Shown: positions 12,855 to 36,480 of the stretch, piece after piece | How the letters are laid out: each line of letters starts with the position of its first letter | Numbering within the stretch: the first letter of the stretch is position 1 | IMG/VR virus record: IMGVR_UViG_3300028603_000018 | Location: 1 to 64,000 of that record | Length of the DNA: 64,000 nt | Source of the DNA: a virus | Taxonomy: Duplodnaviria > Caudoviricetes | Direction: 5' to 3' (one strand) | Translations under genes and position numbers: made by a program | Notes under the pieces: model-generated | What the model saw: only the letters and a program-made list of their open reading frames with translations | What the model was told of the DNA's origin: nothing | The model's database searches: none

Positions 12855-13283
12855 ATGATTATTGAATCAGCTCTACTTTGCCTATCCTTGAATATTTATC
12901 ATGAGGGACGGGATCAGGGATATGAGGGGATGGCAGCTGTAGCTGTTGTCACTATGAACAGAGCAAGTCATGATCAGACTAAAATCTGTGATACAGTCTT
13001 TAAGAAGTATCAATTTAGTTGGGCAAACAAACTCACAACAGTTTCCCCTCAGCAACGCAAGCGTAATGCTGATAGGTTTATGCCAAGAGAGCATCTAGCT
13101 TGGGAAGAATCTAAACGCATTGCAAGACAAGCAATCAAGGGTGAAATTAAACCTAAGATCATAAAGAAGATTGGTAAGTCTGATCATTACTTTAATCCAA
13201 ATAAAGCTAATCCTTCCTGGAGAAAAGCAATGCAGTTCATTGCTCAGGTAGGCGATCATGTCTTTTACCAATCTAGATCTTGA
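12855..13283 (+). CDS. SleB-like cell wall hydrolase (Hydrolase_2)
   Basis: CLSLNIYHEGR, AVAVVTMNR, ICDTV, YQFSW, P.W, VGDHVFY. Confidence 0.92.
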   Translation: MIIESALLCLSLNIYHEGRDQGYEGMAAVAVVTMNRASHDQTKICDTVFKKYQFSWANKLTTVSPQQRKRNADRFMPREHLAWEESKRIARQAIKGEIKPKIIKKIGKSDHYFNPNKANPSWRKAMQFIAQVGDHVFYQSRS

Positions 13284-13608
13284 GCTATCAGAAGGACTAA
13301 GTATGTCTTTTAATAACATCAGTAGTACTTTTAACCATTTCTTTACTACCAAGAAAGAAAAACCTAAAGATCCTTTTATCGAAGACAGTAAAGGGAATAT
13401 TAAGTTTCATCCTGATGACTTCTCAATTGGATCAAAATCAGACATTCACGCATTGACAAATATGTGTATGTCTTATTCTATTTCTCGTATGCGGTATGCT
13501 TCTATGGGAGCTATTACTAATGAAACAGCTGCGAAAGATATCAAGAAGGCTACTGAACTCATGGAGAAGTTTTCTAAATTTCTCTTAGAAGAAGCAAACA
13601 AAGCATAA
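13258..13608 (+). CDS. Hypothetical protein (start probably 13303)
   Basis: AAGGA RBS precedes the ATG at 13303. Confidence 0.6.
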   Translation: MSFTNLDLELSEGLSMSFNNISSTFNHFFTTKKEKPKDPFIEDSKGNIKFHPDDFSIGSKSDIHALTNMCMSYSISRMRYASMGAITNETAAKDIKKATELMEKFSKFLLEEANKA

Positions 13609-13674
13609 CTGCAATTTAAAAGAGTAGGAATAAACCTACTCTTTTATTTCTCTCATTGAAAAAAGGAAACTATC

Positions 13675-14568
13675 ATGGCACGTTTTAACGTTGGTGATAA
13701 AGTAGCTGTTATCTCTTTCTCTTATGACAATAAGGACCCTGTATGGTGGAGTGCGCCTTACAATAATAGTCTTGAGCCTTATAGCTCCATGGAGCTAATT
13801 GAACTCACAATCACTGAAGCACATAATGTGCCTTGGGAGCATGATCCTGATGGTGAGAAGGAGTATGAAGGGTATGGTGCTATTGATGATAAGGGACGTC
13901 GTTGGTACAATCAATACCCTACTGCATCATACGGTCAAACCTCTACTGAAGATGACCATATCTTCTATCATGAAAGTGAGAAAGATTTACTCGCTGCGAA
14001 AAGAGTTAAACAGTTCGTTAAAGATATTTATCGTGGGGTCAATGACCTCTTGAGTAGAGGATGTGAAGATACTTTCTTTCTCATCTCACTTTGGACAAAA
14101 CTCTACACGGATGTAAAGGAGAAGTTTGAAGAAACCTTCCCTGGAAAGACTTTCATTATCAATAGCAGGGAAATTGCCGACAAATTCCGTTATCCTGTTG
14201 GTGAAATTATCGACATCGGATCAGAGAAAGAAGATCTCTTTCTGAAAGAGTGGTTGGAGAAGGATTGGATTGAAGAACAAGTTCAAGCAATTCGTAATGG
14301 AGCTTCTATGAAGATCCGAGCTAAGCACTTCAACGGATTCATTGGTATTCGTTCTTGCGATCAAATTACCATGCCAAATCATTATCAATTCGGTTATTGG
14401 GTATTTGACCCCGATCTCTTTGTTGATGAAAACGCTTCAGAAGCTGAAAAGAACGCTTTTGAAAATGGGTTTAAGCTTCGGCATTATGTGGCATTTGAGG
14501 AAAATGAATTCAAGGAGATGATTGAAGAAGCTATTAGGTGTTCTTACGCCGAATCAAATGTAATCTAA
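13675..14568 (+). CDS. Hypothetical protein
   Basis: 297-aa ORF with AAAGGA RBS. Confidence 0.8.
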   Translation: MARFNVGDKVAVISFSYDNKDPVWWSAPYNNSLEPYSSMELIELTITEAHNVPWEHDPDGEKEYEGYGAIDDKGRRWYNQYPTASYGQTSTEDDHIFYHESEKDLLAAKRVKQFVKDIYRGVNDLLSRGCEDTFFLISLWTKLYTDVKEKFEETFPGKTFIINSREIADKFRYPVGEIIDIGSEKEDLFLKEWLEKDWIEEQVQAIRNGASMKIRAKHFNGFIGIRSCDQITMPNHYQFGYWVFDPDLFVDENASEAEKNAFENGFKLRHYVAFEENEFKEMIEEAIRCSYAESNVI

Positions 14569-14640
14569 TTAATTACACATATACATCATTTATATGTAGA
14601 GAATAACGATTCTCTAATAGTTAACTACAAAGGAAATAAC

Positions 14641-15078
14641 ATGTCTGACGTGTTCTTGAAACTGGCTAACCTCGAAAAGCAAGACGACCTCTCTCATCAT
14701 ACTAGTTCTTTCAACCTCCTCGGCGATGAGCTGAAAGAAGCTCTCAATGAAGCAAAAGCTGAACAGCGTAAAGCTGTCATGCGTGAAGCTGTCAATGAGA
14801 TCATCAAACTCGACCAGAAGTATGAGGCTTGTGTTAAGGCTAACGTTGAGAATATTCGAGCAGCACGTAAAGCAGAAGCACAGAGCCAAGTTCGTCTTAA
14901 AGAATTGAATCGGGCTAAGCAATACGCTATGGAAACTCAAAACTTCCTGCCTCTGGCTTTCCTGCTCGGTGTGCTTGGTAGTAATTACTCCATTGATGCT
15001 GTAACCATTCCTGAAGATTGGAAGTCTGTTGCTGAAACGCCGAAAAAGAAAGCGGTGGTTCGTAAGACTGCTAAGTAA
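14641..15078 (+). CDS. Coiled-coil protein, probably highly expressed
   Basis: Promoter-like motif near 14575, AAAGGA RBS, A/E/K/R-rich helix, biased codons (CTG, CGT, GCT). Confidence 0.85.
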   Translation: MSDVFLKLANLEKQDDLSHHTSSFNLLGDELKEALNEAKAEQRKAVMREAVNEIIKLDQKYEACVKANVENIRAARKAEAQSQVRLKELNRAKQYAMETQNFLPLAFLLGVLGSNYSIDAVTIPEDWKSVAETPKKKAVVRKTAK

Positions 15079-15447
15079 GGCTAGGTACAATCCCGTGTAA
15101 GCCGGGATCAGGGAGGCATCTACCTCCCTGCTACGCTCAACTTACTATTAGAGCTTCGTTATTATGAATCTATATAATGCAAGATTCTTACTAATAATCG
15201 ATAAGACTCTACACTATTATAAAGGCTAATCACCTTTTGATTTATTCAATAACGATTAATGATGTTATAATGCGTTTATCGCTAAAGACGTCATGGTTTA
15301 GCTTCTTACTGATATTGTTGTGGTAGTGATGTATGGCATACGCTCTTATTATACACGTGAGCATCAGCCTATACACCCTTACATACAGCTGAAGTTTAAG
15401 AATTTGCTTTAATAGCAACTCTACTTTTAATTCATTCTAGGCTAAAC
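15079..15447 (+). ncRNA. Candidate structured non-coding RNA or long 3' UTR
   Basis: No ORF of 60 aa or more in the track; hairpins 15090-15108 and 15109-15130; repeated TATAATGC and TTCTTACT; closed by palindromic element 15448-15486. Confidence 0.5.
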
Positions 15448-15530
15448 GGCATAAATAGGGAGTCCTTCGGGACTCCCGTTTATGTTCTTTATTCTTTTTT
15501 TATTATAACAAAAACTATAACAGAATAAAG

Positions 15531-15563
15531 TGTATTCTAGATTATTTCAGAAACATATAACTA
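15531..15563 (+). promoter_or_regulatory. Putative early promoter, duplicated at 62176-62208
   Basis: tgtattctagattatttcagaaacatataacta is identical at both sites. Confidence 0.75.
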
Positions 15564-15658
15564 AGATGAATAGCAATAGAGAATGTTGCTAAGAGTGCTT
15601 CTAGAGAAGCTACGACTTCTCTAGAAGCGTGTGAGTAACCTATCTTCAGGAGGTCATT

Positions 15659-15751
15659 ATGACTGAAAAAGATTATGAGGACGTTTTACGTCTTCTGAAA
15701 TATTTAGACGCGAAGATCACTGCTATTGATGCAGCGGGTCCTCAAGACTAA
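15659..15751 (+). CDS. Micro-ORF (30 aa), not in ORF track
   Basis: Perfect AGGAGG RBS; MTEKDYEDVLRLLKYLDAKITAIDAAGPQD; flanked by hairpins 15597-15628 and 15753-15791. Confidence 0.6.
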   Translation: MTEKDYEDVLRLLKYLDAKITAIDAAGPQD

Positions 15752-15853
15752 ATAAAATAAAGGGAGTAGCTAGCACTCTCCCTTTATTATAGGTCACTCA
15801 CATATAATAGCTAGTGTAACATAAATTTATATTTTTAAATAAAGGAAATAAAC

Positions 15854-16123
15854 ATGTCGACGAACGCTCAAGAAACCATCAAAGAAACCGTCACTGAAAC
15901 TGTTGTTGAGACGGAGAAAGTTCAAACCGAAAACAAATGGGTGAAGATTGCCAAATATACAGGCATCACCCTAGGTGCTGCGGCAGGCATTGCTGCTGTG
16001 GGTTATTACTTCCGTGACTCCATTGCAGGTGTTGTTCGTAGTGATGCTGTCAGTGAAGTACTTGGTGAAGCAGTTGAGAACGGTGGTGAAGTCGTAGCAG
16101 CTTCCCTGCGTTCTTTCTTGTAA
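15854..16123 (+). CDS. Small single-pass membrane protein
   Basis: AAAGGA RBS; TGITLGAAAGIAAVGYYF hydrophobic segment. Confidence 0.8.
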   Translation: MSTNAQETIKETVTETVVETEKVQTENKWVKIAKYTGITLGAAAGIAAVGYYFRDSIAGVVRSDAVSEVLGEAVENGGEVVAASLRSFL

Positions 16124-16256
16124 TACCTATATAGGGAGTCCTTTAATTAGGACTCCCTATTTATGTCTTTCTTTTTTCTTTTTGTTATAGTAAAGAAATC
16201 TCAACTATATATCACTATACTGATATCTATTCTATTAATCATTAGTAAACTTAACA

Positions 16257-16709
16257 ATGGCTAAATCAAAGAAACCTCGTAAGAAACATAATCCTAACAA
16301 AACAACCTTTAATCGACCTCCTCTTTTTAGGTACTCTAAAGAAGAAGGTGAGATGCTAAAAGAAAGGATCTACTTCCATTTAAGTCGTTTTGAAGATAGA
16401 GTAGCTAATGCAGGTGACTATATTGCAATTCGTTTTCGTATTGAAGTAGGTATTAATCTAGCTGATCACTTTGAGAACAATGAATTCAAACTTCTCTTTC
16501 ACGCTGCTCTAGATACCTTAACTAAAGTCCTTACTCGTAGAGAGACTTCTGGTAAGTGGGCTATGGGTGATAATGAAATAGCTGAACTAAAGTATGCTAT
16601 TAGTATTGTTGACGAAATCCAAGATAAGACCACTAGAGTAGAACAACTCCCAGCTTTCTTAAAAGCTAATGAGAATGTTGATAATAGTTTATTTGAACGA
16701 CTCCCTTAA
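16257..16709 (+). CDS. Hypothetical protein with basic N-terminus
   Basis: MAKSKKPRKKHNP; promoter-like motif near 16205. Confidence 0.75.
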   Translation: MAKSKKPRKKHNPNKTTFNRPPLFRYSKEEGEMLKERIYFHLSRFEDRVANAGDYIAIRFRIEVGINLADHFENNEFKLLFHAALDTLTKVLTRRETSGKWAMGDNEIAELKYAISIVDEIQDKTTRVEQLPAFLKANENVDNSLFERLP

Positions 16710-16729
16710 ATAAAAAGGATAAAATAAAG

Positions 16730-16957
16730 ATGCTTAATTTTAAAGATAGTATTCTTAATTGTAAAACTGTAGAAGAAGTACGTAGTGTAGCTACAGCTTA
16801 TCTTTCTCAAGTAGGCGATAGCTTAGAGACCTTTCCTGCTATTGTACGTACTCTAGCTAATTATGGAGGTACTATTAGTACTGCTAAGTCTCTTGTTAGC
16901 AAGTACTTAGAACCTGTCTTCTTTCTATCTTCTCAAGATAAAGATGGTATGAAATAA
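16730..16957 (+). CDS. Hypothetical protein
   Basis: AAAGGA RBS, 75 aa. Confidence 0.65.
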   Translation: MLNFKDSILNCKTVEEVRSVATAYLSQVGDSLETFPAIVRTLANYGGTISTAKSLVSKYLEPVFFLSSQDKDGMK

Positions 16958-16981
16958 AAAAATATGACTTCTTAGCTATTG

Positions 16982-17107
16982 TATAGGACCTGAGAGAGTT
17001 CCTTTCCCTAACGGCTGCTTCCGAGCAGACGGATAAGGGAAGAATTTCTTTCTCACGAAACCGGAGCCGCAGGTAAAGGTGAGTGACCCATCCCCGGAGG
17101 GGCTATA
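16982..17107. other. GC-rich self-complementary element (candidate ncRNA or origin-associated structure)
   Basis: Nested pairings tatag/ctata, tgaga/tctca, ttccct/agggaa, ctgct/agcag, cccc/gggg. Confidence 0.5.
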
Positions 17108-17109
17108 TC

Positions 17110-17500
17110 AGAAAAATATAAGTATACTTATATAACCTATTCTATCCCTTATTATCCTAGTTAGACCTTAATATTCTTATACTACTTATTATACTTATAT
17201 AACCCTAGTTAAGTCTTATATAGACTATTGTGAAGGTTATAACTCCTATAGACTTATATAGCCTCTTTAATAGAGAGTAAAGGGTAATACCACTTATCTC
17301 CTTATTATATCCTAGTAGAGACTATAAAACTATAACTACTATAAAGAAGCTATAACTCTATAACTTATACTACTTAAATTCTACTACTATAATAAACTCT
17401 CTTTACTATTATTAGAATAATTAAAACTCTTAAAACTACTACTAATTTATTGATCTATCTAAGTACTGTAACTCTTAATAGAGCTATAGTACGAGGTAGG
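17110..17500. repeat. AT-rich low-complexity repeat tract, candidate replication origin
   Basis: tatacttatataacc twice, ccttattat(at)cctagt twice, several ctataac; no ORF in the track. Confidence 0.45.
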
Positions 17501-17541
17501 TCTATTTATGCTGTTTAACTTCTTATTTAAAGAAATAGATT

Positions 17542-32587: not shown

Positions 32588-33286
32588 ATGCGTGAGATAT
32601 TGATAGCAGGAGGAATTGAGACTGGACTTGATCCTTACTGGAATAATGTGTCTCTGTTATTACCTTTATCTGGCGATGACGGATCTAAACCTCTTTTAGA
32701 TGCAACAGGAAAAGCTATTACTTACCATGGTTCAGCACAGATAGTAGAGACTCCTTCTAAATTTGGAGAGGGTAGTCTTTCTGCATTAACAGCTTCAGAC
32801 TATCTATCCTTTCAAGGCGGGTCTCCTTTTAATTTCAGTAATAATGATTTCACTATTGAATTACAGTTATATGTAAGCTCATCTTCAACAGGTTCTATTC
32901 AAGCCATATATGAGGATCGTGTCAATGCAGCGACCGATCTTGTCTGTGCACTTACTTATACTTCTAATAAACTAACTATGTGGATGTGGATCTATGGTGT
33001 TCATGTTACAGCAGTTGGTTCAGGTCTTACCGTACCTCCTAATACATTTAATCACTTAGTCTGGTGTCGATCAGGTAATACTATTAGAACATTTATAAAT
33101 GGTGAAATTAATCAAACCTCCACTTATACAGGAACAGCAGGTGGTGGACCAACAGTGCGTTTATTAGGAAGTACTTATAGTCAGCCAGTAAATGCTTATG
33201 CTAATGATATTAGAGTAACTAAAGGTATAGCTCGCTATATAAGTTCTTTTGATCCTCCAACAGAACCTTTCCCAATTAATAGTTAA
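32588..33286 (+). CDS. LamG/concanavalin A-like domain protein, probable virion accessory protein
   Basis: DPYWNNVSLLL, SKFG, DFTIE, NHLVWCRSG.TIRTFING, DIRVTKGIARY..SFDPPTEPF. Confidence 0.88.
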   Translation: MREILIAGGIETGLDPYWNNVSLLLPLSGDDGSKPLLDATGKAITYHGSAQIVETPSKFGEGSLSALTASDYLSFQGGSPFNFSNNDFTIELQLYVSSSSTGSIQAIYEDRVNAATDLVCALTYTSNKLTMWMWIYGVHVTAVGSGLTVPPNTFNHLVWCRSGNTIRTFINGEINQTSTYTGTAGGGPTVRLLGSTYSQPVNAYANDIRVTKGIARYISSFDPPTEPFPINS

Positions 33287-33305
33287 TATAAAAAAGGATT
33301 TAGAA

Positions 33306-36413: not shown

Positions 36414-36480
36414 TTAGGAATACTGTCTAAAGGTATACATATAACTATCTTTAGACAGTGTCTATAAATAGGAGATTACA

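Follow-up and report, generated by a model that had tools for sequence, protein, structure and literature searches.

A predicted twister-sister ribozyme between a helical-protein gene and a long non-coding tract in distant phages

In the 64,000-nucleotide stretch of viral DNA analysed here (the window), the gene for a 145-aa helical protein runs into an element that can be assigned to the twister-sister ribozymes with near certainty, and the ribozyme is followed by a long non-coding tract and an intrinsic terminator. The same order of gene, ribozyme and tract recurs in other phages and very probably represents a conserved three-part module, judging from comparison of the loci. The ribozyme class is known; the gene-ribozyme-ncRNA arrangement is a previously undescribed conserved layout. 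Because the hairpins downstream of the gene belong to a self-cleaving ribozyme, a cut in the transcript at 15138/15139 is most likely, which would make the mRNA and the tract two molecules. The complete reading, wherein a conserved unit is cut by its ribozyme and a functional RNA of ~350 nt is released, has in our judgement even chances of being correct.

The window covers the opening 64 kb of contig C90 (244 kb), which has a G+C content of 36 %, while the other large contigs in the same bin have ~65 % G+C. This difference and the gene content identify the contig as an uncultured jumbo phage that was binned alongside a bacterium. Among the products encoded in the window are a 743-aa major head protein, a ribonucleotide reductase, an endolysin-like protein and numerous orphan genes. 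The identical locus occurs in three other public assemblies with 0 mismatches over 12.4 kb, so these copies are of no use for covariation. The features of the proposed transcription unit are as follows.

14575..14640, + strand: 72-nt spacer preceding the ORF; the ribosome-binding site AAGGA lies ~8 nt 5' of the ATG (from the sequence)
14641..15078, + strand: ORF of 145 aa, belonging to the YerA41 gp083 / RP13 ORF207 family (ORF call)
15074..15146, + strand: predicted twister-sister ribozyme of the three-way-junction type, without P3 (Rfam RF02681)
15139..15457, + strand: AT-rich non-coding tract, with no gene call, no conserved small ORF and no promoter-like word
15458..15500, + strand: predicted terminator, consisting of an 8-bp stem (GGGAGUCC/GGACUCCC) with a UUCG loop at 15458-15477, then a U-rich run (terminator scan)

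The preliminary description of this DNA had placed a promoter-like motif at 14575. No sigma-70-type site was found in the spacer at 14575..14640; the spacer contains ACATATACATCA, a loose variant of the word ACATATMACTA that is not within one mismatch of it. ACATATMACTA itself is enriched about three-fold in the window, with 17 copies compared to 5.7 expected (0 of 100 shuffles reach 17), and 14 of the 17 copies lie on the + (coding) strand. The word scan places copies of ACATAT[A/C]ACTA at 15553-15563, 16207-16217, 2773, 11930, 22554 and 27516, among others, with further copies at 36437, 37175, 45458, 61695, 62198 and elsewhere in the window. The word lies upstream of several genes, at a distance of 60-90 nt, and a role as promoter element of the phage is likely. 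It is absent from 15147-15457, and its next copy, at 15553, is just past the terminator; this distribution fits a single unit that extends from upstream of the ORF to the terminator. A terminator-like hairpin lies at 15458-15477, and the predicted terminator at 15458..15500 closes the transcription unit. The palindrome, GGGAGTCC...GGACTCCC, recurs in the window (15458-15477 and 16131-16160). With its flanks, the copy at 15458-15477 shares 83 % identity over 51 nt with a gene-free spot in the Edwardsiella jumbo phage pEt-SU, which hints at a distant relationship.

A long spacer without a sizeable ORF had also been described, and gene calls are indeed absent across 15079-15853 in three independent assemblies. 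Gaps on the contig have a median of 74 nt and a 90th percentile of 274 nt, so the spacer after the 145-aa gene is unusually long. Other gene-free gaps of 580-930 nt are found at 168357-169290, 152868-153790, 169939-170729 and 228460-229078 of the contig and at 16958-17541 of the window, and these could hold further non-coding RNAs or origins. On the opposite strand, an antisense ORF of 158 aa (14614-15090, -) spans the entire 145-aa gene and wins a naive longest-ORF selection, but is almost certainly spurious.

The match to Rfam RF02681 extends over 15073-15149, covers the full model (positions 1-81) and reaches 43.2 bits (gathering score 34), with an E-value of 2e-8 to 3e-6. It is the sole match above the gathering score in the 244-kb contig, and an Rfam scan of 13000-17500 at a permissive threshold returned nothing besides the ribozyme. 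A weak twister-sister match of 28.1 bits (below 34) is present in the same bin at 33211-33299 (-) of contig C27 (genome G000, locus L002), a bacterial contig with 64 % GC. The window element folds as follows, with all parts on the + strand.

15074-15079 with 15141-15146, + strand: P1 (fold)
15080-15084, + strand: 5' loop GCUAG (fold)
15085-15087 with 15132-15134, + strand: P2 (fold)
15090-15094 with 15104-15108, + strand: P4 (fold)
15095-15103, + strand: L4 loop GUGUAAGCC (fold)
15109-15116 with 15123-15130, + strand: P5 (fold)
15135-15140, + strand: 3' loop GCUCAA (fold)
15138..15139, + strand: predicted scissile step C15138 / A15139, equivalent to C62-A63 (model alignment and published site)

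The hairpins ATCCC/GGGAT and CAGGGAGG/CCTCCCTG, which the preliminary description had already picked out, are present and correspond to P4 and P5 of the ribozyme. The stop codon of the ORF (TAA, 15076-15078) lies inside P1, and a CTTAC copy at 15141 is the 3' strand of the same stem. The activity nucleotides fall in GCUAG, in GCUCAA (G59-C60-U61 and A63) and in the L4 loop GUGUAAGCC, for which GUGNAAGCC served as the criterion. Twister-sister ribozymes are cleaved at a C-A step in the strand of the 3' loop (PMC6154101), namely C62-A63 (PMC5660989). In a model twister-sister, G5A and A63U abolish cleavage, with G5C not among the mutants, while any base is allowed at C62 and A7U is wild-type-like (PMC5660989). 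The window ribozyme has every residue known to be required for cleavage; it retains G5, C6, A8, G9, A63 and the C-A step, and its single deviation in this set is A7U; position 64 is an A, which is seen in natural phage copies too. As the five residues are kept and A7U is tolerated, the window ribozyme looks competent for self-cleavage.

Eleven distinct loci of the protein family were compared, these being the window, RP13, YerA41/GN1, L123, L125-127, L131, L132, L133, L134/135, L144 and L145. A twister-sister or twister-sister-like core lies directly 3' of the family gene in 10 of the 11, which supports the earlier suggestion that the protein gene and the downstream RNA form one conserved module. 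The sole exception, L125-127, has no core, and its contigs are too short to show sequence further downstream. The member that lacks a ribozyme (L126, 3-413 and 480-890; P0002 type, higher GC) is directly preceded by a second gene, of 136 aa, and the two are possibly a tandem pair. In the three complete or near-complete genomes, namely the 244-kb contig, RP13 (171 kb) and YerA41 (146 kb), there is one family gene and one core per genome, and the two are adjacent. The ribozyme is annotated in none of the records, including those of RP13 and YerA41.

The details of the junction vary between loci. The stop codon is inside P1 in the window, L132 and L144. Gene and ribozyme are separated by a terminator-like hairpin in L131 and L145 and by a hairpin lacking a T-run in L123, and L144 features a terminator-like hairpin right after the ribozyme; several relatives have a hairpin immediately 3' of the ribozyme. 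The terminator-like hairpins of L131, L145 and L144 indicate that the transcript layout is not uniform. The family gene is found near phage tRNA genes in RP13 (L124; tRNA-Met, -Ser and -Leu) and in YerA41 (L129; tRNA-Arg, tRNA-Met and a pseudo-tRNA). In both phages, GGATAACA occurs just before the ATG of the gene that follows the tract (L124 3823-3832 and L129 3728-3739), right after a long perfect hairpin of 12-13 bp, a combination that may represent a signal for translation or processing common to both.

The explanation favoured here is that the locus is one transcription unit, comprising a highly expressed helical-protein gene, a ribozyme that overlaps the stop codon, a tract of ~320 nt and an intrinsic terminator. 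During or after transcription, the ribozyme would cut between C15138 and A15139. The mRNA would then have the compact ribozyme fold, with a 2',3'-cyclic phosphate, as its 3' end, and the other product would be a free RNA of ~350 nt with a 5'-hydroxyl at its start and the terminator hairpin at its end. Cleavage would let the abundant mRNA and the downstream RNA follow separate fates; the latter would most likely be a fast-evolving functional non-coding RNA and not an empty spacer.

Selection on the ribozyme fold can be judged from nine fully readable homolog-linked copies, across which helix pairing was scored by script-made tables. All scored pairs of P1, P2 and P4 are canonical in the nine loci, and double changes occur in two of three P2 pairs, three of four P4 pairs and all three P1 pairs. 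P5 is an unrelated hairpin in each copy. The copies divide into three groups according to their catalytic residues.

Group A (window, L132, L144, L134): all tested catalytic residues intact
Group B (RP13, L131, L145): U at the A63 position
Group C (YerA41, L123): C at G5, an altered L4 loop (GUGARAGUC) and a change at position 64 too

The Rfam model detects the window and RP13 copies only and misses the other family copies. The helices of groups B and C still co-vary, which argues that the fold is under selection. Since half of the family's ribozymes are substituted (U at A63 or C at G5), cleavage may not be what conserves the fold, and its conserved function may be a different one. The fold could in that case act uncut, as a structured 3' cap or as an insulator of transcription or translation, with the intact core in the window an ancestral leftover. 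The substitutions in groups B and C agree with such a role, as do the death of A63U and G5A in the model ribozyme (PMC5660989) and the continued covariation of the variant helices. However, every tested catalytic residue is retained in the four loci of group A, the changes in the variants are lineage-specific and may be compensated (in group C through L4 and position 64), and the mutant in the published work was G5A, not G5C (PMC5660989). A fold that works uncut is very unlikely, and cleavage with release of the downstream RNA is the preferred reading.

What is released would be the tract, and its properties bear on whether it is functional. Between the ribozyme and the next gene lie 249 to at least 560 nt in each of the nine loci whose sequence reaches far enough, and most of the tracts end in a strong hairpin or intrinsic terminator. 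There is no general sequence similarity among the tracts. DNA searches against phage records, for near as well as distant matches, found no relatives of the window tract, the sole match being the terminator palindrome in pEt-SU. No other Rfam family scored above noise in the window's or the relatives' tracts. A conserved small ORF was considered and rejected; the longest ATG ORF has 11 codons in L123 and 16 in L132.

Without the ribozyme and terminator, the window tract gives a folding z-score of -2.5 for both strands, a value within the spread of the coding controls taken from the window (n=12, mean -0.77, sd 1.33, minimum -2.65). Seven tracts compared with dinucleotide shuffles gave sense z-scores of -2.1 to -5.9 with a mean of -3.9 (controls -0.77), and the sense score is stronger than the antisense score in five of the seven. 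The structured tract of the preliminary description is therefore not distinguished from controls in the window, where both strands score alike; as a group, the seven tracts are more structured than the coding controls. Furthermore, CGAATAACC(A) is common to the tracts of L131, L132 and L144 and has only two copies elsewhere in the ~1.1 Mb of fetched loci; in each of these three tracts, a hairpin with a UGGU-containing loop lies upstream of it. CGAATAACC is absent from the window tract, which has loose look-alikes only (CAATAACGA at 15245). The preliminary description had also drawn attention to repeated words in the tract, and these turned out to be at chance level and not common to relatives. 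As binding sites, TATAATGC (2 in the window compared to 2.8 expected), TTCTTACT (11 compared to 7.4) and CTTACT (65 compared to 62) were all rejected.

The main alternative to a functional released RNA is that the ribozyme serves only to trim or stabilise an abundant mRNA at its 3' end, with the tract a functionless spacer degraded after cleavage. This would explain why the tracts lack general sequence similarity and why the fold score of the window tract is within coding controls and not strand-specific. It also agrees with what is usually proposed for ribozymes of bacteria and phages, namely the processing of polycistronic transcripts to alter stability (PMC6765202). Despite these points, a functionless spacer appears rather unlikely. 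The genome is compact (median gap 74 nt), yet 250-560 nt have been kept in nine divergent loci, whereas the next gene is close by at other twister-sisters. A specific 9-10-mer with its hairpin common to three tracts, as well as the group fold z-score of -3.9, likewise speak for tracts with a function.

A functional RNA could also be produced from a small-RNA gene of its own within the tract, with its promoter at TGTTATAAT (15263-15271), an extended -10 look-alike, and its end at the 15458 terminator. The -10-like sequence and the terminator would together give an RNA of ~200 nt, and in L144 the tract is preceded by a terminator followed by a promoter-like, AT-rich stretch. TATAAT-like words are, however, expected by chance at 36 % GC, a -35 partner was not found, the promoter-like word enriched in this phage is absent from the tract, and the TGTTATAAT element is not common to relatives. 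An independent gene is therefore extremely unlikely, and the release of the tract RNA by the ribozyme remains the favoured origin. The preliminary description had named two outcomes that together would count against its protein-plus-RNA module, transcripts that end at the first hairpins and homologs without conserved downstream structure. Through cleavage, the mRNA probably ends there indeed, but the homologs keep a downstream tract, which carries conserved elements in a subgroup.

The product of the gene upstream of the ribozyme is, as had been described, a helical protein. Its AlphaFold model consists of a 70-residue helix and a small C-terminal part (pLDDT 89). The capsid-like codon bias that had been reported was likewise confirmed. 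On the main codon axis of the contig, the 145-aa ORF ranks third among 212 ORFs, the most extreme being that of the major head protein, and its GC3 is 0.43 compared to 0.27 +/- 0.05. Codon usage close to that of the major head protein suggests that the gene is very highly expressed and that the protein is probably made in large amounts. A phmmer search gave 281 family representatives (E <= 0.001; best E 7e-15), with the best at 35-44 % identity. Using tblastn, family members were detected in Ralstonia phage RP13 (ORF207) as well as in the Yersinia phages YerA41 (gp083) and GN1, and identity is 30-40 % with the relatives in RP13, in YerA41/GN1 and at no fewer than seven distinct metagenomic loci. 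A metagenome scan yielded two family loci, and a search of viral contigs for related loci with the protein or its alignments yielded none.

The 145-aa protein matches the family pattern, R-x2-R ... A-x2-Y-x3-T-x-N-x2-P-L ... P-x2-W/F, over its full length. P104 and P124 are invariant in the alignment, and R73, R76, Y95, T99, N101 and L105 are near-invariant. In some members, the module forms the C-terminus of longer proteins (e.g., the long fused members P0008 and P0010), and many members, including that of the window, end in a lysine/arginine-rich tail. Searches of Pfam, PHROGs and PDB sequence profiles provided no functional name for the family, and Foldseek (PDB, BFVD) and the ESM Atlas returned nothing past the RP13 homolog. 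GenBank labels YerA41 gp083 and the GN1 homolog as 'structural protein', and that phage's structural labels in YerA41 go back to LC-MS/MS of virions (PMC7354516). The 145-aa helical protein is probably virion-associated.

In line with the functions proposed in the preliminary description, the protein might bind the ribozyme fold or the tract RNA to form a ribonucleoprotein, or the RNA might act as a sponge or decoy. The strict one-to-one linkage in three whole genomes and 10 of 11 loci fits such a partnership, as does the basic tail, and a fold kept despite changed catalytic residues is what would be expected of a binding site. On the other hand, domain and fold searches recognised no RNA-binding domain in the protein and no fold match, the chance-level frequency of the repeated tract words argues against a sponge or ribonucleoprotein, and expression control explains the linkage in cis equally well. 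Taken together, binding or a sponge/decoy role is unlikely. A more specific version, in which the helical protein and the released RNA (or the mRNA-borne fold) are physical partners in a phage ribonucleoprotein of assembly or the virion, is quite improbable; the packaging RNA of phi29 offers a loose comparison. It is similarly improbable that the twister-sister fold doubles as a processing site and a protein handle, as this version implies. If true, a twister-sister would for the first time have a natural protein partner and a defined biological role.

Twister-sister ribozymes were discovered bioinformatically in 2015, and their chemistry is well understood. For their biological role, reviews explicitly ask for associated proteins and contexts (PMC6765202). 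At the locus described here, one ribozyme is strictly paired with one protein family and with one long non-coding tract, an ancient association that spans Yersinia phages, a Ralstonia phage and several uncultured hosts. Its presence in at least ten distant phages offers a testable handle on the natural role of twister-sisters. As YerA41 and RP13 are cultured and RNA-seq of YerA41 infection exists (PMC7354516), the role of the ribozyme is directly testable. The natural A63 and G5 variants can reveal alternative catalytic solutions or uses of the fold that are independent of cleavage. Current annotation misses the ribozyme, and the Rfam model sees just part of the family.

In comparison with the RF02681 family in its three-way form (PDB 5T5A), the window copy has the same P1, internal loop, P2, junction, P4 with the GUGNAAGCC loop, and P5, and shares the conserved loop nucleotides and the C-A scissile step. 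It differs merely by the tolerated A7U and the A at position 64, while RP13, L131 and L145 deviate from the family at A63, and YerA41 and L123 at G5. A four-way form of twister-sister has also been described (PMC5660989).

Other phage twister-sisters were collected by scanning IMG/VR for a sequence pattern and filtering the matches by stem formation, which gave 51 valid sites, many of them from related contigs and hence not independent. As in the window, the ribozyme in these phages is at or near the stop codon of the upstream ORF: P1 begins at most 11 nt from, or overlaps, the stop of an upstream same-strand ORF at 43 of 48 sites. The next ORF follows within 0-248 nt at the 51 sites, there are often several ribozymes per operon, and the genes upstream are of anti-restriction-like or methyltransferase-like type. 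A second scan, which was group-specific, found 12 loci with 13 three-way-junction ribozyme sites, where the next ORF is 0-57 nt away, with one at 141 nt. The 145-aa family adjoins none of the 51 IMG/VR sites or the 12 group-specific loci. Phage twister-sisters of the IMG/VR type have been discussed as processing sites of polycistronic transcripts (PMC6765202). Unlike these, the family studied here combines one ribozyme per genome and one protein family with a long non-coding tract and a terminator.

Ribozyme cleavage is also known to set mRNA stability in glmS and in reporters with a twister ribozyme in the 3'-UTR (PMC6154101, PMC6765202). The types of end are the same as those predicted for the phage transcript, a 2',3'-cyclic phosphate and a 5'-hydroxyl, which alter how RNases treat both products. 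Unlike glmS, the phage ribozyme has no evident ligand-binding element and lies 3' of the gene, not in a 5' leader. RiboJ, a synthetic ribozyme with a hairpin insulator, is placed before a coding sequence and separates the parts of a transcript. The phage locus is RiboJ-like in principle, in that a self-cleaving ribozyme would uncouple upstream from downstream RNA, but unlike in RiboJ, the downstream part is non-coding.
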